A stretch of DNA of 64,000 nt, from the IMG/VR virus record IMGVR_UViG_3300033074_000806, positions 1-64,000 of that record; one strand, 5' to 3'. Shown here in pieces: positions 1 to 9,474 of this stretch (position 1 is its first letter; each line of letters begins with the position of its first letter). Below the pieces are notes generated by a model. That model saw nothing but the letters and a program-made list of their open reading frames with translations, was not told where the DNA came from and ran no database searches. Origin of the DNA: a virus (taxonomy: Duplodnaviria > Caudoviricetes). The position numbers and the translations under genes are program-made.

Positions 1-251
1 GTAGCAGCAGCTGTGAAGACCAAATCAGTAATGAGTGGGCACTTATGGCAGATTTTCTTAAGCCAGCGTGGCAGCTTAGAAAACAATGTCAATGAACTGA
101 TAGCCATGCACACACCAAGGACAAGTCCAGTGTTAAAAAGACTTCCCAGGGTGAACATGGTAAAAGGAATGACTGCCACAATCAGAATATTGATTGGGTT
201 GTTCCAGTCAGTTGCTTTCAGCTTCTGAAAGATGCTTTCTGGTTGTGCCAT
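1..251 (-). CDS. Hypothetical membrane protein, partial (runs off the window start)
   Basis: Hand translation from ATG at 251 (AGGA upstream): MAQPESIFQKLKATDWNNPINILIVAVIPFTMFTLGSLFNTGLVLGVCMAISSLTLFSKLPRW..., hydrophobic segments, open to position 1; not in the ORF track. Confidence 0.65.
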   Translation of the reverse strand, partial: MAQPESIFQKLKATDWNNPINILIVAVIPFTMFTLGSLFNTGLVLGVCMAISSLTLFSKLPRWLKKICHKCPLITDLVFTAAA

Positions 252-267
252 CGCAGGTTCCTAAAAT

Positions 268-323
268 TGGTGGACCGTCTAGGATAGTGAACCCCAGTCT
301 GCCACACAAGGTGGTCACGGCCC
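268..323 (-). ncRNA. 56-nt tRNA-like mini RNA with G3-U70 acceptor stem and encoded ACCA end
   Basis: Minus strand GGGCCGT-GA-CCAC(CTTGT)GTGG-CAGA-CTGGG(GTTCACTAT)CCTAG-ACGGTCC-ACCA: 7-bp acceptor stem, T-arm-like hairpin, only one internal hairpin. Confidence 0.65.
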
Positions 324-338
324 GAATTCGTCGAAGGG

Positions 339-560
339 CTAGGTCTTAAATAACCTAGCAATTGAAATACAAAATAGCACGGGTAGTATTAAATACCATC
401 CTAGAAAGCTTATGATTAGTGCTGCCATTGTTTCTGAAACTACTTCATCTGAATTAAAGTCTTTTATACTCCATTCGTATTTAACAGCACTAATTACTAA
501 GAGTATTAAAAAACAGACAGCAGCGCCGATTAGATAGAACATAGTTAAAAATGAGACCAA
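339..560 (-). CDS. Small two-TM membrane protein
   Basis: 73 aa with two hydrophobic stretches; start uncertain (ATG at 542 possible). Confidence 0.6.
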   Translation of the reverse strand: MVSFLTMFYLIGAAVCFLILLVISAVKYEWSIKDFNSDEVVSETMAALIISFLGWYLILPVLFCISIARLFKT

Positions 561-1088
561 AGGGATGAAGGGTGTGAACCATTAAACACCCTCTCTGGAC
601 TTTAGCCTCAGTTTGTTCCAGAACCACAAATGCCAGAAGTGACTCAGGTAGCGTCAGAAAATGAAATGTTGTAGCGATGCTTTATAGATGAAGCAAATCC
701 TTAGCGTGTAACTGGTATTATTCAATTACACTACGGATCTGGTCAAGCATCTGATCCCCGTTATCTATAAACAACAGGTCCTACAACAAAATTGATTGTA
801 AAAAAGCGGCCCCGGCAACAGTCTGTATTACTACACACTAAATTGCCAGGGCGGCCCAACTATATTAAATCCTAGTTTGCCTTCTCACCCATGCGTTTCT
901 GTACTTTCTCGATCCAGACAGAACTAGGACAGTCTCTTCCAAAGATGTATATCAAATCTAGTAAGGCAGAGATGGGGGGGGGGTTGGAGGTCAAATCCCT
1001 GGCTTACTAGACAATTTGAAAGCCAACTGAGATCTGAGGTAACTCAGATACGAGCCGTCATAAGGACAGCTCTCTCACCTGGCAATAT

Positions 1089-1166
1089 TGGTGTAGCGTG
1101 ACGGATTTTCACCGTGCTTAGTGGTTGCTGCTTTTACGCAGACCACAGTAATATACCAGACGCCAC
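1089..1166 (-). ncRNA. 78-nt tRNA-like RNA (resembles a tmRNA tRNA-like domain) with G3-U70 and ACCA
   Basis: GTGGCGT/ACGCTAC acceptor + ACCA; T-arm ACGG(TGAAAAT)CCGT; extended central stem GTGGT-CTGC(GTAAAA)GCAG-CA-ACCAC without a canonical anticodon loop. Confidence 0.65.
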
Positions 1167-1299
1167 GAAACTGGGGTTATTTTAACTTAACACGTAGATT
1201 CCTACGATATTAAGAACAAGGACGGGCTAACCTACCACTTAAGCCTTGTTTTTTAAGGTCTTGCAATACCTTTTGTTTTGCTACGGTCAAACTTTTATT

Positions 1300-1372
1300 T
1301 GGTGCTAGGTTAGAATTGATCTAATAGGTTGTAGCACCAGGTTGATCAGACCCTATTATGATCTTTCCTAAC
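1300..1372 (-). tRNA. Degenerate tRNA-like element (possible Ile-GAU remnant)
   Basis: GTTAGG/CCTAGC + ACCA; GGGT(CTGATCA)ACCT 7-nt loop; TTAG(ATCAATT)CTAA T-like arm; D arm not formed, alternative folds possible. Confidence 0.35.
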
Positions 1373-2057
1373 TTATGCTATGGGAACGTCTAGCTCGACC
1401 CATAGTTTTCGCTCACACGTGTCATTTTATTGACACAACGCGCTAGCACTTAAGAGCTGTTTAAACTCAGCTAGCAGGAGTAAATACGGGTTGTCTCAGC
1501 AGGTAATCTATACAACGCAGCCCGTAAGCGTTGTTCCATAGCTGTGTTTTAATTTTAACTAGAGTGTTGAGCACAGAACATACTCTAGCGTGGTAGATTT
1601 AATTTGACCATGAACCATCTACCAGAGAGTCATGGATACTAGCTCCAGTATGTTTCTATACACTAACGCTGAAACACCATTAGTGTTACGGACAACTAGC
1701 AGAGTGCCCGGCATCTAGCTACTAGACTAGTGCTTTTTGATAGCAGGTATGTAGATATATCTAATACCATGAGGTAAGCTTTTCCCTCACTTGCTATCTA
1801 TGAGGAGTTCAAGGCCGCGTTGCCGACCCTGCTCTCCACAAATTCCTGTAACTGTCAAATTAATGACAGCGTCGCATGTGTTATTTTTAATAAAAACTTG
1901 AAACAATCGTTAATTATTTAATAGTATTATGAGTATTAATTAATTATCAATGTAAGTAGTATTATATATAACTAGTTATGTCGCTTCTTGTAGGTTAGTG
2001 CTAACCAAGCCTACCCAGCCTATTACGCACATAAGCCATGAAGGCTAGTAGGTAGTG

Positions 2058-2210
2058 TTATACTCTCTTTAAAACTGCTAGTAATACTAAGGATACTACT
2101 CCTAGAGTCATCATGATTATGATTGATACACTAGCGAATTTGATAGATGCATCTTCCCTTTTTAGGTTGTTAATCCGTCTTTTCTCAAGATAACTTAGAT
2201 AATCGTCCAT
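2058..2210 (-). CDS. 50-aa single-TM protein
   Basis: Hand translation MDDYLSYLEKRRINNLKREDASIKFASVSIIIMMTLGVVSLVLLAVLKRV; palindrome 2211-2228 abuts the ATG. Confidence 0.55.
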   Translation of the reverse strand: MDDYLSYLEKRRINNLKREDASIKFASVSIIIMMTLGVVSLVLLAVLKRV

Positions 2211-2235
2211 GTGTCACTTATTTGACAGATGCGCC

Positions 2236-2448
2236 TTATTCCTCTACTAAATGAGCATTAACAACATAGACTTTATTCTAATACATTGCAACCATTATGC
2301 CACTATTAAGACTAATGGCGTTATACCCACTTGCATTGTCTTCTATTCTCATATAGATGTCATTATCTCCACCAATTCTAAATAGATCACCTGTTTTGAT
2401 TAATGACCAATCTTTCTTGCTACTAATGTTTTTATCTATGATTTTCAT
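2236..2448 (-). pseudogene. Fifth MKI-family paralogue interrupted by in-frame TAG (2278-2280)
   Basis: MKIIDKNISSKKDWSLIKTGDLFRIGGDNDIYMRIEDNASGYNAISLNSGIMVAMY*NKVYVVNAHLVEE; ATGA overlap with upstream gene. Confidence 0.6.
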
Positions 2449-2666
2449 GATTGGCCATTAAGATTTATTGTTGCGTTTGGAAATGTAATTATTTCTGTAT
2501 CTTCGTTGATATGAACTCCAATACCAGTTACAAGATTGACGGCATCTCTATCATAATCAAGTTCTGTTGAAATTTTGATATATGCGTCAGAATCATCTAG
2601 CAACTTGAAACATACTCCTACATTAATTTGCTTGAATCTAACAATTGGAACTTGGGATATCTTCAT
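2445..2666 (-). CDS. MKI-family small protein (paralogue)
   Basis: Shares pattern MKI...GxxF...YxK...AVxLxxG with neighbours. Confidence 0.8.
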   Translation of the reverse strand: MKISQVPIVRFKQINVGVCFKLLDDSDAYIKISTELDYDRDAVNLVTGIGVHINEDTEIITFPNATINLNGQS

Positions 2667-2725
2667 GGCTGTGTCCTTTTGTGGGCTCGAACTATCAGAT
2701 AATTGATAGTGTGCCGCATGTTCGT

Positions 2726-2950
2726 TTAATCAACTACAACAGTAGCTTCAAGAGGAATAACTAATGATGTGTCATCAATAGGAGTTAAAGTTCCATCAGT
2801 AAGGCTTACTGCAGTGAACCATATATCGCAGAATATTGATTCAATCTTCATCAATATTTCAGCATTAGTCACAGCTTTAAAGACCTGGCCACGTGGTAGT
2901 TCTTTAAATGTGACTACTACTTGTTTCGGACTCTTCTGGATGATCTTCAT
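2726..2950 (-). CDS. MKI-family small protein (paralogue)
   Basis: FKELPRGQVF...LMKI...AVSLTDG. Confidence 0.8.
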   Translation of the reverse strand: MKIIQKSPKQVVVTFKELPRGQVFKAVTNAEILMKIESIFCDIWFTAVSLTDGTLTPIDDTSLVIPLEATVVVD

Positions 2951-3135
2951 ATCTGGTTACTGTCAATTAAATGATAGCGCGGCCCTCCATCGTCTAGACT
3001 AATAGCATTAACTTTACTATTAGAGATAGATGTGATTTTGATAAAGATTCTAATTCCACTGAGAAGCGTGAATGTTTCTCCAGGAAGGATCTCTATTAGC
3101 TTTACTGGATTGGGTTGTTTGCGTGCGATCTTCAT
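2947..3135 (-). CDS. MKI-family small protein (paralogue, shortened C-terminus)
   Basis: ILPGETF...FIKI...NAISLDDG; palindrome 2960-2977 lies in its 3' end. Confidence 0.75.
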   Translation of the reverse strand: MKIARKQPNPVKLIEILPGETFTLLSGIRIFIKITSISNSKVNAISLDDGGPRYHLIDSNQI

Positions 3136-3175
3136 ATGACTCTCACTGTCAGTTTTTTGATAGCCCGGCCCTTCC

Positions 3176-3391
3176 CTATTTCTCAGTAAATTCCCCTTCT
3201 ACAAGTATTACTTTAGTAGTTTCTCGTTCACAATCAGGATAGCCATTAAGTATGTTTACTATGTTGAATGGATAATCAGATCGTTTATCTAATTTCATAT
3301 AGATAGTTTCAAAATCTGGTCGTCTGAATAGATCACCAGGCATTAGGTCACGTAGCTGCTTATAGAGTCTTGGTTTTGGATTTATCTTCAT
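3176..3391 (-). CDS. MKI-family small protein (paralogue)
   Basis: LMPGDLF...YMKL...NIVNILNG. Confidence 0.8.
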   Translation of the reverse strand: MKINPKPRLYKQLRDLMPGDLFRRPDFETIYMKLDKRSDYPFNIVNILNGYPDCERETTKVILVEGEFTEK

Positions 3392-3775
3392 CGTAGCTTG
3401 GGGTTTTTCTTTGGTTTGTTCTATGGGTTGTTGGTTATTTAGTATTAAATGTGACTATAGCTATCAATATTTTAATAGCTAATGTGTTTATACTATTAGT
3501 TTTTTGACAGTAAATAATCAGGATAATTTCACATACGCGCGGGTTATTAGAGCTGATTTCCTAATTAAACCTCGAATAATGCATTTATTCCCAGGGAAGA
3601 TTGCAATTTATGGTGTTTTTGGAGTAAAATCACTGTTTTTACCCCTGTTTTCCTGAATAGAGGTCACAGAATCCCTCTAATCCAGGGATTTGAGAGATAC
3701 ACACCTACTACCTACACCCTCGTGCTATCAAATTAATGATAACACTCGGGCTGTCATGACTCATCCTTAAATAGA

Positions 3776-3811
3776 AGGACTAGTAGCCATATTGGTTTAG
3801 CTACTAGCCCT
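3776..3811 (-). terminator. Hairpin downstream of the 3853-4254 gene
   Basis: AGGACTAGTAGC...GCTACTAGCCCT inverted repeat followed on the minus strand by TCTATTT. Confidence 0.4.
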
Positions 3812-3852
3812 CCTAACACCTAGCCTCGTTGTCACACTAACGGCGGTCTTGG

Positions 3853-4254
3853 TTAGGCGGGTGCAGGAGTCAGCTGCACTTCGCCCAGGATTTCCTTGCG
3901 GATGTGCTCGGGGAGATCCTTGAGCTTGGCCACAATGTTGCGGCGCTTGCTATCCATCTCCACGAGGTTGTTGAGGATCTTGGTCTCCTCCTGGTCCAAC
4001 TTCTGGCCCTGCTGTGTCAATTTACTGACACTGCCACGGATCTTGGCCTTTTCGAAGTTGGCGGCGGTCACTTCCAGTCCCAGCTTCAGTCCCTGGAAGA
4101 ATCCTTCTGCGGATCCTGCCAGTTGTGATGCACCAAGGATGGGGTGGCGGATGCCATAGGCGATGCCACCGACAGTCTTGCCGATGAGCACACCAGCAGT
4201 TTGGCCGAATGGGATGTCATTTTTCAGACACTCCCAGTTGATGTCCTTGTTCAT
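3853..4254 (-). CDS. Hypothetical protein (Gly-rich N-terminus, coiled-coil C-terminus)
   Basis: 133-aa ORF, GC-rich codon pattern in line with neighbours. Confidence 0.75.
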   Translation of the reverse strand: MNKDINWECLKNDIPFGQTAGVLIGKTVGGIAYGIRHPILGASQLAGSAEGFFQGLKLGLEVTAANFEKAKIRGSVSKLTQQGQKLDQEETKILNNLVEMDSKRRNIVAKLKDLPEHIRKEILGEVQLTPAPA

Positions 4255-4256
4255 GT

Positions 4257-4487
4257 TCAGATACCTGCCTGCTTGCAGTGGTAGTAGACTGCCACGGTCG
4301 ACACACCGTAACGTTGTGCTTCCAGCTTGACCACGGTTGCTCGTGCAGAGCTGTATCGTGGATAGCGCTGGATGACCTTGAGCATGTCGCGACGATCACG
4401 AACAGGAATCTTGGTGTTGCGTTGGATCTTCATCTGGACTGTCCTGATGGGATGTAGCATCAAAAAATACTCCCACGAGCTATTCAC
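4257..4487 (-). CDS. Small basic protein with HTH-like C-terminus
   Basis: AQRYGVSTVAVYYHCKQAGI resembles an HTH turn and recognition helix; true start may be 4460 or 4433. Confidence 0.55.
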   Translation of the reverse strand: MNSSWEYFLMLHPIRTVQMKIQRNTKIPVRDRRDMLKVIQRYPRYSSARATVVKLEAQRYGVSTVAVYYHCKQAGI

Positions 4488-4514
4488 TCATGAGAGTATT
4501 CTTTGACACCTGGA

Positions 4515-5186
4515 TCAGAACTTGACATCGTCGCCAGGGGCGAGCTCGGCTTCCTGCTCCACCTTGGTGTTGGGGCGCCTGACGTTGTCCTGGGCCTTGA
4601 CCCAGTAGAGGCCCTTGCCAGGCAGGCTGGGAGGTGCGTTGATGAACACCAGCTCCTCCAGGATCGGGATCACCCGGTGGCCCAGCTCGGTCGTGTTCCG
4701 CAGGTTCTCCATCTGCAGGAACTGGTCCAGGACATCGCCATCGATGAGCTTCTCCAGGTGCTCCCCAGACATGATCATCGGCTCGTCTCCGTTCAGCAGG
4801 CCCGGATAGGCCTCGATCAGACGCTGCTCGGCATCACGAGCGTCGTCACCGTTGGGGAACAGCAGGATGAGGCCCTGCTCCTCGTGGGCGTAGCCGATGT
4901 TGGCCGAGTTGGCACGCTTGATCTGCACCGGCTGTCCCTTGTCGTCCTCCGCGATTCGGGAGTAGGTGATGATCTCCGGTCGGTTCAGCTCGATGATGAG
5001 CTTCTCGAACTTGTCGGCGAGCTCGATCCCGAAGTAGGACTTGTCTCGTCGGCTGTAGGCCTGGCGGAACACGCTCATGCCCAGGGTGTTGTCACCCAGC
5101 TTGCGCTCCTTTCGGTTGTATTCGTTGACGCCGTGCTTGAACAGATTCTTGATGTGTGCTTCCATGTGTATCCTCGTTAGGATCAA
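4515..5186 (-). CDS. Hypothetical protein
   Basis: 223-aa ORF downstream of the RNAP gene; likely start ATG 5165 (GAGG upstream). Confidence 0.75.
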   Translation of the reverse strand: MILTRIHMEAHIKNLFKHGVNEYNRKERKLGDNTLGMSVFRQAYSRRDKSYFGIELADKFEKLIIELNRPEIITYSRIAEDDKGQPVQIKRANSANIGYAHEEQGLILLFPNGDDARDAEQRLIEAYPGLLNGDEPMIMSGEHLEKLIDGDVLDQFLQMENLRNTTELGHRVIPILEELVFINAPPSLPGKGLYWVKAQDNVRRPNTKVEQEAELAPGDDVKF

Positions 5187-5245
5187 AACGACTAAACAGA
5201 CATGGAGGATGTGAGCACAATGCCCACAATCCCTCCAAAGATTCC

Positions 5246-7594
5246 TTAGTTTGTCAGGCGAACCAAGGAACCGGAGTAAACAATCCTAGCCTCGTCCAAG
5301 GTCAGGACCTTGCAAACCAGGTTCGGACTGCTGTATTTGGCCAGTGTGCGAGCCAACACAGCCCATGCACCGACCTTCTTGGCTTTGTCCAGCCTGATCT
5401 TGATACGGAGTGCAAGCCGCTCCATCTCAGCCTGTGTCAAAGATTTGACATCTTGCTCAGATAGCGTCTTGTTCTCTTGGTTCTTTCGCAGGATTGTTTT
5501 GAAGCAGTCCTGATAGAACTCAGCCAACTGGCGTGATCTCAGAGACACTGCCATCTTGCAATCTGGGATCTTGATACGCTGTTGATCGATCCCATGCAGA
5601 GGCAGCCAGGTATCTGCTACCTCTTGGGCTACTAGGGCAATCCTTTCATAGATTGTCCCCTTGATGATGGGCGCTTCCCAATCATTTGCCCGGACGTGGT
5701 TGATGGCGAAGTCCATCTTCTCCAGGTTGTGGATTGCAGGCACGTTCACAATGGGCACCTCGTGCTTCTTGCGATCGACCTCAGCTTGCACAGCCCTGGA
5801 TAGCTGTAGCTTCATCTCATAGTCCAATCGGCCCATCTCATAGGCTCTGCGGGCCATGAGGTCCCACTTGCCAATGTTACCTTCAATGGTATACATGGCC
5901 TGCTTGATGCGCTCCTTCCAGCTAGTAGCACCAGTGCGCACCGACTTCTTCTTCTGTGTCAACAAACTGACAGGTGTCTTGTCATACACCTTACCTGGCA
6001 AAATATTGACAGTGTCGCTGGTAACACTGCAATCATCGCCATCGTAATCGCCGCCTTGAACTGTCATCCACGGCTCACTACTGATCTCGCAGTAGTTACC
6101 ATTGGTGTATCCCACGACAGTGTAACGCTGCGTGGAGTTGCCCACAGGCAAGCTGGGATCTCTGGTCACATCCACGAGGTCACCAACCACCCACTCGCAG
6201 AACTTGGGCACCTTGATCTCGAATGGCTCCAGGTCTGGATTGGGTGCAGCCTTGACTCGGATACCATTCATTGCGGCCTTGGTAGCAGCCTCGAATACGA
6301 ACTTCTTGTGGAAGTAGCGCGCCCTATCCAGGTCGATACCATAGCCGAGTGCCATCAGCTTCTCCACACCATGGGCCAGCCCAAAGTGTTTGAAGTCTGT
6401 CATTTTTCTGATCGATGGCACGAACAGCTCTTCGATCAGTTTTTTGATCTCGTCGGTGTTGTAGTTATAGACGAGTGCTTGGATGTTCAGGCATGGAGTC
6501 GGCCTGTAGAGGCTATCCGTGTTGTGGACCAGCATCGTGCTGGGGTTGAGGGTGCCGGTAAGGCAGCCGAATTTCCAGGACTCGGAGTAAACCTCAGGTT
6601 CTTGACCAGGATCGCACTCCATGATCGCGCCCTTGGTTGCGTGACCATTCTCCCTGTCAATGATGGTGATCTGCACCCATTTGGTGCTTTGAGGCATCCC
6701 ATACCAGCAGCGCTTGATCTGGTCCATGGTTTCCCTGGACACTCTGGCCACTAGCCCATCATACTTGGGATTGTCATTGACCTTGGTAGGCCAAGTGATC
6801 ATCTCATGGTGAACAGCCATGCTTCCAGACCGACAGAGCAGTTGCACTGCGTTCTGAAGGTCCTTGAGCCGGTTGTTTTTGATCAGTTGCATGCCGATGA
6901 TCCCACCCATGGCATGGATGATAGCGGGCCCGAATCCCTTGCCCTTGGCAAGCACAGCAGTGGTAGTGTGATCGCCAGCCTTGACTCCCAACAGATGGTA
7001 GTCGCGCCTTTCAGCTCTAATAGCCATCGTCTCCAGCTTCTCCTGGGAGATCTCCTTGGGGAGCTCCACATAGAACAGCCATTCATTGGACAGCCGTTCC
7101 TGATAGAGCTTGTAGTTGTATTTGACGAGTTCCCCAGCCTCCCACCGCCAGGTGGGTTCAGGACGAACTCGGTAGATCGCGCGCTTCACGGCTTGCTGAA
7201 GCTTCTTCACGAGCGCCTCGGAAGTCTCCAACTCCAGGTTGGGATCAACCGCAAGGATCTCGGCGATGTTGGCGATCAGCCCTTTGGCGCGCCTATTCGT
7301 GCCAGTAGCAAGTATCGCTTCTAGGCATTTGGTATTGAGACCTACAGAAGGAGGGAGGGAACGTGTGACGGTTTCCATGTGAACTAGGTGTGTGAACGTG
7401 ACTCGGCAGTTCCTGTAACTGGCTACAGGCCAGATACTTACCTCGGAGCCTGCATGACTGCCATCTGACAAGCTCAAAGAATGGTCGGAGTAGTCACGAT
7501 AGATTACTCCAACCTGGTTCTGATCAGTCAGCCCTCCTGCATACGTTGCAGACAGGCTGATAGCTACCTTCCGGCAGCTGAAAGATCTCACCAC
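5246..7594 (-). CDS. Single-chain double-psi-beta-barrel RNA polymerase, YonO / QDE-1 (cellular RdRP)-like
   Basis: Ordered motifs VQI...TKGAI, VTRDPSL, QGGDYDGDD (6035-6055), NIGKW, QAEVDRKKH; start codon uncertain. Confidence 0.8.
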   Translation of the reverse strand: MVRSFSCRKVAISLSATYAGGLTDQNQVGVIYRDYSDHSLSLSDGSHAGSEVSIWPVASYRNCRVTFTHLVHMETVTRSLPPSVGLNTKCLEAILATGTNRRAKGLIANIAEILAVDPNLELETSEALVKKLQQAVKRAIYRVRPEPTWRWEAGELVKYNYKLYQERLSNEWLFYVELPKEISQEKLETMAIRAERRDYHLLGVKAGDHTTTAVLAKGKGFGPAIIHAMGGIIGMQLIKNNRLKDLQNAVQLLCRSGSMAVHHEMITWPTKVNDNPKYDGLVARVSRETMDQIKRCWYGMPQSTKWVQITIIDRENGHATKGAIMECDPGQEPEVYSESWKFGCLTGTLNPSTMLVHNTDSLYRPTPCLNIQALVYNYNTDEIKKLIEELFVPSIRKMTDFKHFGLAHGVEKLMALGYGIDLDRARYFHKKFVFEAATKAAMNGIRVKAAPNPDLEPFEIKVPKFCEWVVGDLVDVTRDPSLPVGNSTQRYTVVGYTNGNYCEISSEPWMTVQGGDYDGDDCSVTSDTVNILPGKVYDKTPVSLLTQKKKSVRTGATSWKERIKQAMYTIEGNIGKWDLMARRAYEMGRLDYEMKLQLSRAVQAEVDRKKHEVPIVNVPAIHNLEKMDFAINHVRANDWEAPIIKGTIYERIALVAQEVADTWLPLHGIDQQRIKIPDCKMAVSLRSRQLAEFYQDCFKTILRKNQENKTLSEQDVKSLTQAEMERLALRIKIRLDKAKKVGAWAVLARTLAKYSSPNLVCKVLTLDEARIVYSGSLVRLTN

Positions 7595-7616
7595 AGCAAA
7601 CGCAAGCTACGAACAT
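7524..7616 (-). CDS. 30-aa zinc-ribbon micropeptide
   Basis: MFVACVCCGEIFQLPEGSYQPVCNVCRRAD, GGAG 8 nt upstream, just downstream of palindrome 7638. Confidence 0.5.
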   Translation of the reverse strand: MFVACVCCGEIFQLPEGSYQPVCNVCRRAD

Positions 7617-7678
7617 GTGCATGACTCCAACAGAACGCTGTCATTTAATTGATAGGTAGACAGCATCACCTATTTGAC

Positions 7679-8876: not shown

Positions 8877-9102
8877 GGAAATCTCCATTAAAAGAAGACC
8901 GGGTGGGCGTGAAACTCAACATGAGTCTCCTTTACTAAGCACCCAAACCCAACACTATTACCTGTCTATTTAGTGATTAGCTGTCTTTTTATTGATAGAA
9001 TCCCTATTAAATTTACAGCCGGTCTATTTTTAAAAAATTTTACTATAATTTTTTTACACGCGTTAAGGGTTCTCGCTAAACACATACAGAGGGATTTTCT
9101 CT

Positions 9103-9474
9103 ATGGAACACATCGAACAAATAAAAAATTTGATTATTGAAAATCAAGAAATACTATCTCGCTTCATAAAAGAGATACAGGGACATAATGTTTCCTTAGA
9201 GACCTTAGAGCAAGAGATTAACTTCTTAAAAGATTTACATCAGCAGCTGTCGTTATTGGTTAGAGATGACGCAGATAACTCGTTACTAATTAGAATATCC
9301 AGACTAGAGGGATCTGTAGATGAGTTTCGTCTCTACTTAGAAACAAGGGAAGGTCAAGATGATAGTGCTGATAAGAAAGCAGGGCATAATCGGTTGGCGG
9401 TTATTATAGCTTTGATAACTAGTATTACTAGTTTGTTATCCCAATTATTGGAGGCTATATTCGGTAAGCATTAG
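9103..9474 (+). CDS. Coiled-coil protein with C-terminal TM helix (holin-like architecture)
   Basis: Heptad-rich body, LAVIIALITSITSLL tail. Confidence 0.55.
   Translation: MEHIEQIKNLIIENQEILSRFIKEIQGHNVSLETLEQEINFLKDLHQQLSLLVRDDADNSLLIRISRLEGSVDEFRLYLETREGQDDSADKKAGHNRLAVIIALITSITSLLSQLLEAIFGKH

Follow-up and report, generated by a model that had tools for sequence, protein, structure and literature searches.

A candidate Pistol ribozyme at a module boundary of an ORF-free, structured RNA island in a large phage

A 64,000-nt window of viral DNA (Duplodnaviria; Caudoviricetes; positions 1 to 64,000 of IMG/VR record IMGVR_UViG_3300033074_000806) contains, between positions 561 and 2057, an interval without open reading frames (ORFs), and analysis of this interval indicated a modular, non-coding stretch of structured RNA that carries a likely Pistol-class ribozyme. 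We favor, with moderate confidence, a reading in which a non-coding transcript of the minus strand would be cut by this ribozyme into two stable RNAs. The record, of which the window forms the first 64 kb, is a viral sequence of 130,587 bp with a G+C content of 38%; it is classed as linear, with a completeness of about 68%. Genes for a major head protein, a tail sheath and a terminase-like protein identify the source as a large myophage; near-identical DNA was present in activated-sludge and wastewater runs. Since every ORF from about 8.7 kb down to position 3 lies on the minus strand, the island sits inside a leftward cluster of small genes. A first-pass annotation had read positions 569-1850 as either one large non-coding RNA of the GOLLD or ROOL kind or a polycistronic precursor punctuated by tRNA-like elements. 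That reading is partly supported: the present data fit a processed multi-RNA locus, and neither a giant RNA nor punctuation by tRNA-like elements.

For the comparative analysis, relatives were located via an RNAP-like gene and via the gene at 3-251. The lineages used were A (the window's own), B (L025-L028, 93% identical), C (L030) and D (L024, which equals L031), with B to D syntenic with the window, so that covariation was judged on only four lineages, two of them 93% alike. A complete 189.7-kb genome with a capsid identity of only 53% (G001) was added as a distant relative.

No Rfam family reached its gathering score in the window. The best hit by E-value between positions 200 and 2300 was to the Pistol family (RF02679), which matched the minus strand full-length at 1481-1411 (model positions 1-68) with 27.7 bits and an E-value of 2.5e-4 on this genome alone; the Rfam gathering cut-off for this family is 34.5 bits. 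The orthologous elements scored 29.0 bits in lineage B, 31.0 in D (L024/L031), 41.8 in C (L030) and 42.5 in G001, the last two passing the cut-off. The stems P1, P2 and P3 occur in canonical order and are 100, 100 and 91% paired, respectively, across the four lineages. In the Pistol family a pseudoknot joins the P1 loop to the P2-P3 junction and is not scored by the Rfam model (PMC4604425). In the window, the P1 loop GCUAGC (1475-1470) pairs over 6 bp with GCUAGC (1447-1442) in the left P2-P3 junction, lineages C and D retain 5 bp, and G001 pairs UCUGG with CCAGA, also over 5 bp. P2 covaries from GCUC/GAGC through GGUC/GACC to GGUU/GACC, and in G001 the sequences of P1, P2 and the pseudoknot all differ yet still pair. 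The conserved core residues of the family, namely purine 32, the G33-C41 pair, G40 and G42 (PMC6154101), are all present; in the env25 numbering of the same source A32 corresponds to position 1450, G33-C41 to 1449-1440, G40 to 1441 and G42 to 1439. The two-base junction G53-U54 falls on 1416-1415 and reads GU in all four lineages and GA in G001, and the cut is predicted between G1416 and U1415. The family consensus leaves P3 variable, but here its sequence is fixed and in all five lineages is one copy of a palindrome repeated through the early region; this is the one unusual feature of the locus. Together, these comparisons indicated that a Pistol architecture with covariation is present, and the element is likely of the Pistol class, with predicted activity. 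A pseudoknotted hammerhead (PMC11300833) was also considered and rejected, as no hammerhead family matched at E ≤ 10 and the sequence lacks the CUGANGA core. Positions 1232-1251 and 1443-1462 form a 20-nt repeat of 80% identity that copies the Pistol center (AAACA..CUUAAGUG.UAG) into the RNA downstream; the copy has no P3 and no model match, and is probably a chance similarity or a decayed duplicate and not a second Pistol.

The ribozyme forms the 3′ part of a conserved core and stands at a module boundary. Upstream of it lies a conserved RNA of about 215 nt composed of a hairpin (H1), two tandem H-type pseudoknots (a and b) and a second hairpin (H4), whose positions and pairings are listed in Table 1. 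Stem 1 of pseudoknot a contains two covarying pairs (one as A-U, G.U or G-C, the other as G-C or A-U), and its stem 2 is retained, G.U occurring there in two lineages. Pseudoknot b of L030 has entirely different sequences in its two stems (GGUGUGC/GCACAUC and CCAUG/CAUGG) yet keeps all of its pairs, a change that automatic alignment masks. When the whole core was aligned across the four lineages with its pseudoknots included, 95.7% of the cells of its 65 pairs were paired, in comparison to 24-40% with the partners slid by 1-3 columns. Eight pairs had changed on both sides, a number equaled in 1 of 500 shuffles, and the covariation score was 0.169 vs 0.103, equaled in none of 500. The two pseudoknots covary, and so does the terminal hairpin at 857-800 described below. 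The double-pseudoknot RNA matched no Rfam family, and the preQ1 model gave no match to pseudoknot b at E ≤ 10, so that only the H-type topology is shared. A reading of the core as a tmRNA or tag ORF was rejected because the lineages differ by indels of 3 and 2 nt, which break any frame, and because no tmRNA model matched.

Downstream of the predicted cut the island is largely lineage-specific. The parts common to the window and the other lineages are 2027-1995, 1905-1876, the core at 1694-1405 (290 nt), 1349-1325, the hairpin at 857-800 and, past the interval, 323-267; the remainder of the island differs from lineage to lineage. As judged by eye, a hairpin about 10 nt after the predicted cut occurs with differing sequence in lineages A, B and D and in G001, and with a mismatch in C. 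The conserved stretch 1325-1349 supplies the 5′ strand of a long hairpin, the far end of which varies from lineage to lineage. The variable modules that follow include the three-way junction 1022-1083, a tRNA-like shape at 1089-1166, a hairpin at 957-1011 with a C10 loop, and the hairpin 870-929. One relative of 95-99% identity (run X8) lacks 1016-1170 and others replace 934-948; the 155-nt segment 1016-1170, which holds the three-way junction and the tRNA-like shape, is therefore a dispensable module. The G10 run at 974-983 (the C10 loop on the minus strand) varies in length among close relatives. The variable modules end at a terminator-like hairpin (M4, 857-800) that is found in all four lineages with a different stem sequence, retained pairing that includes G.U, and a U-rich tail in each. 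Directly after this hairpin lineage D has a tRNA-Trp, at the place of a 122-nt three-way module (788-667) in the window, and that module is restricted to the window's own lineage, being absent from L025, L030 and L031. Together, these data showed that the stretch is modular, and a mosaic of shared and lineage-specific modules speaks against a single large RNA. The stop of a gene in G001 is followed by the Pistol, about 250 nt without an ORF of at least 50 aa, a hairpin with a U run, and the next gene, so that the layout of Pistol, structured RNA and U-tract hairpin is older than the sequences that fill it. Blastn of the RNA following the G001 Pistol against that of the window found no similarity.

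Table 1. Features of the ORF-free interval in minus-strand order, with positions in the window.
Feature	Positions	Strand	Remarks
Whole ORF-free interval	561-2057	-	Between minus-strand ORFs 2058-2210 and 339-560
Conserved island M1	1995-2027	-	88% identical to L024/L031; present in L025
AT-rich stretch with promoter-like hexamers on both strands	1870-1990	-	Includes conserved island M2 (1876-1905)
Palindrome copy CTGTCA-N6-TGACAG	1852-1869	.	Repeated in the record
Hairpin (about 1803-1843) and three-way junction (1739-1798)	1739-1843	-	Lineages A and B only; sliding-window z -4 to -5 on minus strand
Hairpin H1	1657-1688	-	11 pairs, 2 compensatory; 100% paired in 4 lineages
H-type pseudoknot a	1592-1638	-	S1 UAUCCAUGA/UCAUGGUCA; S2 GGUAGAU/AUCUACC; third loop A-rich
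H-type pseudoknot b	1542-1589	-	S1 GCUAGAGU/ACUCUAGU; S2 CUGUG/CACAG; third loop UAAAAUUAAAA
Hairpin H4 (ACAACGC/GCGUUGU)	1512-1534	-	Stem invariant, no covariation; loop length and sequence vary
Likely Pistol-class ribozyme	1411-1481	-	P1 1481-1478/1468-1465; P2 1457-1454/1414-1411; P3 1438-1431/1424-1417
Hairpin CUAUGGG/CCCAUAG	1378-1405	-	10 nt past predicted cut
Conserved island	1325-1349	-	89% identical in L030; within block common to L024
Variable structured modules	860-1324	-	Lineages A and B only
Terminator-like hairpin M4	800-857	-	13-14 bp stem; conserved 24-nt loop (UUUAGUGUG..CAGACUG); U6
Three-way module, 122 nt	667-788	-	8-bp closing stem; z -5.9 minus, -3.3 plus
Hairpin just upstream of ORF 339-560	569-592	-	7 bp; folds; no comparative support

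The strength of folding was determined on both strands as z-scores of the fold energy of each segment against dinucleotide shuffles. On the minus strand the scores were -3.9 (1695-2057), -1.7 (1405-1700), -3.2 (1175-1388), -4.8 (860-1180) and -5.5 (660-795), and on the plus strand, in the same order, -1.7, -2.8, -1.2, -2.2 and -3.6; coding controls (n = 28, from 14 places on both strands) gave a mean of -1.0 with a standard deviation of 1.3. Four of the five segments thus fold far better than their shuffles, more so on the minus strand (-3.2 to -5.5), and the fifth, 1405-1700, contains the pseudoknots, which the folding program is unable to score. The G.U pairs in conserved helices (core and 857-800 hairpin) would read A.C on the plus strand. 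The structure is therefore above chance, the first-pass observation is confirmed, and the minus strand is favored by the z-scores, the one-strand G.U pairs and the minus-strand neighboring genes. The three-way junctions at 1022-1083 and 1739-1798 and the hairpins at 870-929 and 1378-1405, all predicted earlier, were recovered in the folds. The multibranch domain at 667-788 was found as first described in the plus-strand fold, the minus-strand fold being better (-44.3 kcal/mol). The three-way junction suggested at about 1436-1533 appears only as a single-sequence fold, and the relatives favor hairpin H4 (1534-1512) and the Pistol fold in its place. One place picked as a coding control outside the window, at about 110000-110300 of the genome, gave z-scores of -4.8 and -4.3 on its two strands and may be another structured element.

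The claim that the stretch lacks ORFs was upheld for 569-1850, and the empty interval proved wider; the longest ORF within it is 40 aa (table 11). Four genetic codes were used in total, and with TGA, TAG or TAA recoded as sense nothing longer than 99 aa opened in the interval, on which grounds the alternative codes (table 4, TAG=Q, TAA=Q) were rejected; the late genes in the window are open under table 11. Lineage B is 92.9% identical to the window over 2053-819, and the 91 substitutions that separate the window from L025 there are distributed over the three codon phases as 25/36/30 (p 0.37), with 8 indels in the island that are all of 1 or 2 nt. The two flanking genes, compared with L025, gave phase counts of 51/22/11 and 29/2/1 and zero indels. 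Codon periodicity, which would have pointed to short ORFs, is thus missing from the differences to this 93%-identical relative, and since the indels break frame in the interval while the flanking genes are periodic and free of indels, the stretch is non-coding. Between lineages A and B the island is 97-99% identical over 950-1600 and 1750-2053, and the flanking genes 79-87%; this better conservation of the island points to constraint on RNA or to recent exchange between phages.

In the model that we favor, the island, within the leftward early gene cluster, would probably give rise to one or a few minus-strand precursors of independently folded modules, and the Pistol element would cut the precursor at its predicted site. 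The upstream product, with the pseudoknots and the ribozyme still in it, would carry a terminal 2′,3′-cyclic phosphate, and the downstream product would begin with a 5′-OH, five ribozyme-derived bases and the hairpin and continue through about 600 nt of lineage-specific modules to the 857-800 hairpin, at which transcription would terminate. From what is generally known of bacterial RNA decay, such ends would be expected to slow exonucleases and 5′-end-dependent decay and so protect both RNAs. In this scheme transcription as a single precursor, the cutting itself, the protection by the ends and the termination at the hairpin are all things we infer. As to what the RNAs do, our guess would be decoys in host takeover or stabilizing ends for the early message. 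The 122-nt module and the hairpin at 569-592, both beyond the U-tract hairpin, may be separate units. The proposed precursor is close to the polycistronic one suggested at first, the difference being that its punctuation would be supplied by the Pistol element and the U-tract hairpin: ARAGORN found no tRNA genes in the island, and the Rfam tRNA and tmRNA models gave nothing at E ≤ 10 in 200-2300. The suggested link to tRNA clusters holds through the relatives only, by way of the tRNA-Trp of lineage D and of tRNAs that lineages B and D carry 3.5-5 kb further on, and no tRNA lies in the window's own island.

Traces of the island were found in an oligo-dT wastewater metatranscriptome, in which contigs with one mismatch were confined to 849-933 (k-mer depth 42) and 1175-1388 (k-mer depth 51) and the neighboring genes of 1-4500 had no contig. 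Both pieces lie inside the predicted downstream product, and we regard them as a weak hint of transcription. DNA carry-over is possible, and adapter sequence abuts 849 and 1388, yet the two contigs imply opposite read directions. No RNA contig covered 1500-2057 or 560-800, which is not evidence of absence.

Several observations weigh against cutting into two stable RNAs. The library data are assembled contigs, which cannot show strand, ends or level, and none of them lies on the conserved core; the covariation statistics from four lineages are thin and indicative only; and in lineage D the tRNA begins about 10 nt past M4, a poor fit with efficient termination there. In addition, the window's own Pistol copy fails the gathering threshold and departs at two conserved positions, A39 being C and G52 being U; a G in the pseudoknot partner compensates for C39, and U52 gives a U.U pair at the base of P3. 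The low score and these two departures are also what would be expected if the small RNAs of the locus were independent, each starting and ending by itself, and if the Pistol-like copy were decayed and inactive or had only a structural or protein-binding part without processing. That P3 copies a palindrome which probably has a function of its own fits this alternative as well, as does a contig of run X15 that spans the predicted cut (1278-1480), although that run is probably DNA. We consider independent RNAs unlikely, given that all residues assigned to catalysis are retained in five lineages, that P1, P2 and the pseudoknot change with their pairing retained, and that two orthologues score above the curated threshold.

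The palindrome deserves separate consideration. The copies noted at first at 1419-1436 and 1852-1869 were confirmed, and sites resembling YTRTCA-N6-TGAYAR number 15 in the record vs 1.3 in shuffles, an enrichment of about tenfold, with 10 of them within 1419-7655, in the early arm. Relatives, among them L024, L025 and L032, are equally enriched, with counts of 8 sites (22 kb), 11 sites (11 kb) and 6 sites (7 kb) vs fewer than 0.2 expected, and G001 has 5 copies vs 0 in the control. Copies stand just before start codons and also within ORFs; the one at 5956, for example, falls in the RNAP-like gene and keeps its place in relatives. Given that some copies are intragenic and that each half-site varies independently of the other, the palindrome is likelier to be bound as DNA by a dimeric protein than to act as an mRNA hairpin, and it is a candidate for such a site. 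One could speculate further that the 215-nt double-pseudoknot RNA is a new functional class of phage RNA whose 3′ end is made by its built-in Pistol, and that a factor recognizing the palindrome, as DNA or as RNA, couples processing or local transcription to the early program through P3, itself a TRTCA-N6-TGAYA copy. We hold this combined proposal to be rather improbable; if true, it would describe a protein-controlled natural Pistol ribozyme.

The same palindrome family, with its copies at 1419 and 1852, and the AT-rich block at 1870-1990, both strands of which have promoter-like hexamers, would suit a stretch that acts mainly as DNA, as a regulatory or replication region with protein-binding palindromes and only incidental RNA folds. 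The conservation of the ribozyme fold and the covariation of helices with G.U on one strand only speak for RNA instead; no iterons or repeat arrays were found, and the AT-rich part amounts to only about 120 nt. A mainly DNA role is thus improbable on balance. A promoter role for 1870-1990 would be an inference from these hexamers. The conserved island M2 within it precedes a small gene in lineage D.

A single folding unit of the GOLLD, ROOL or OLE kind, in line with the first of the two first-pass proposals, would account for the length, the dense structure, the phage setting and the tRNA genes nearby in relatives. This reading now appears very unlikely: neither GOLLD (RF02032) nor ROOL (RF03087) matched at gathering score in the window, nor even at E ≤ 10 in 200-2300, only 290 nt and one hairpin are common to the lineages, 155-nt modules are gained or lost in relatives of 95-99% identity, and the stretch has an internal ribozyme and an internal U-tract hairpin. 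Finally, a graveyard of decayed protein genes or a set of short unannotated ORFs, conceivable where neighboring small genes come and go as cassettes (ORF 2058-2210 is absent from relatives), is scarcely credible in an interval that shows no codon periodicity, only 1-2 nt indels (all 8), better conservation than the adjacent real genes and no frame opened by stop-codon reassignment.

The reach of the homology searches was as follows. Blastn of 1-4000 against the INPHARED phage collection gave no match. IMG/VR relatives found via the capsid protein (about 54% identical) had no DNA similarity to the island, a search of IMG/VR with the RNAP protein gave no match, nor did two exact-pattern IMG/VR scans for conserved core strings, and the contigs retrieved via a 133-aa neighboring protein all stop short of the island. 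No direct-repeat arrays, iterons or CRISPR were found in the stretch. A DUF3800-VI RNA (RF02915) hit at 1024-1081 reached 24.3 bits with an E-value of 0.05; assignment to that RNA calls for more than 35 bits and a DUF3800 gene nearby (PMC5737381), and the 130.6-kb record, at 68% completeness, gave no PF12686 (DUF3800) match.

Some further observations concern the neighborhood of the island. The small ORF 2058-2210 and its upstream palindrome form an indel cassette (2058-2236) that is absent in lineage B and in the relatives of runs X3 and X8. In the adjacent region of an 'MKI' paralogue (2236-2545), the 51 sites that differ from L025 fall into phases 12/20/19, without the codon periodicity of the neighboring genes, and this pattern suggests diversifying selection or a doubtful coding status. 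On the other side, a 57-nt minus-strand element at 267-323, with a small ORF on either side, has an identity of 92-93% across all four lineages, higher than that of the surrounding genes; it has an acceptor-like stem GGGCCGU/ACGGUCC followed by ACCA, and its G3.U70 pair becomes G-C in L031. In relatives, weak tmRNA-like or YrlA-like (tRNA-like domain) hits and tRNAs occur 3.5-5.5 kb downstream of their Pistol (11624-12071 of L040 for G001; 9091-9315 and 11028-11135 of L025; 19681-20945 of L024), and the matching part of the window phage falls beyond the end of the record. Outside the window ARAGORN reported a tRNA with anticodon UCA (labeled SeC) at genome position 125607-125683, complement, which may be a UGA suppressor.

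To our knowledge the natural role of Pistol ribozymes is still unknown ten years after their discovery, and the locus offers a clean test case, with the ribozyme conserved at a single module boundary in phages whose capsid identity is down to 53%, flanked by a covarying RNA that matches no Rfam family and by a variable RNA cargo that is bounded by a conserved hairpin and has left traces in wastewater RNA libraries. P3 coincides with a regulon-wide palindrome, and this suggests that a ribozyme and a protein-binding site may be linked in a way that can be tested. More generally, the locus shows the gene-free 'tRNA-region' islands of large phages to be swap-shops of RNA modules, where one lineage holds a tRNA and another a different fold. 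The part of the locus that was already known is the Pistol family in its usual phage setting; what is new is the double-pseudoknot RNA without an Rfam family and the doubling of P3 as a palindrome copy, and the novelty is moderate.

Among known systems, GOLLD (RF02032) and ROOL (RF03087) share with the island the association with phages, the length, the lack of ORFs and tRNA genes nearby (here in relatives), and they differ from it in that their models do not match and in being a single fold where the island is modular. Classical H-type pseudoknots with an A-rich third loop include the preQ1-I aptamer and those that precede the tRNA-like structure in the 3′ UTR of tobacco mosaic virus. Pseudoknots a and b have the same topology, two stems with an A-rich loop across stem 1, but stand two in tandem with larger stems and loops, and no Rfam riboswitch matched at E ≤ 10. 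The HDV-like theta ribozymes of gut phages, which are thought to process their transcript, are likewise small self-cleaving ribozymes in a non-coding phage RNA region linked to tRNA genes (PMC10879173); they belong to another class and cut at their own 5′ end, and the window island has no tRNA. The closest comparison is with the Pistol ribozymes themselves (RF02679; Weinberg et al., 2015; Harris et al., 2015, PMC4604425; structures 5K7C and 5KTJ, reviewed in PMC6154101). From these the window copy differs in its sub-threshold score, in C39 and U52, and in a P3 fixed to a repeated palindrome, and with them it shares the stem order, the pseudoknot of 5-6 bp, the A-rich linker, the core residues, the 2-nt GU junction, the phage setting and orthologues above the curated score.

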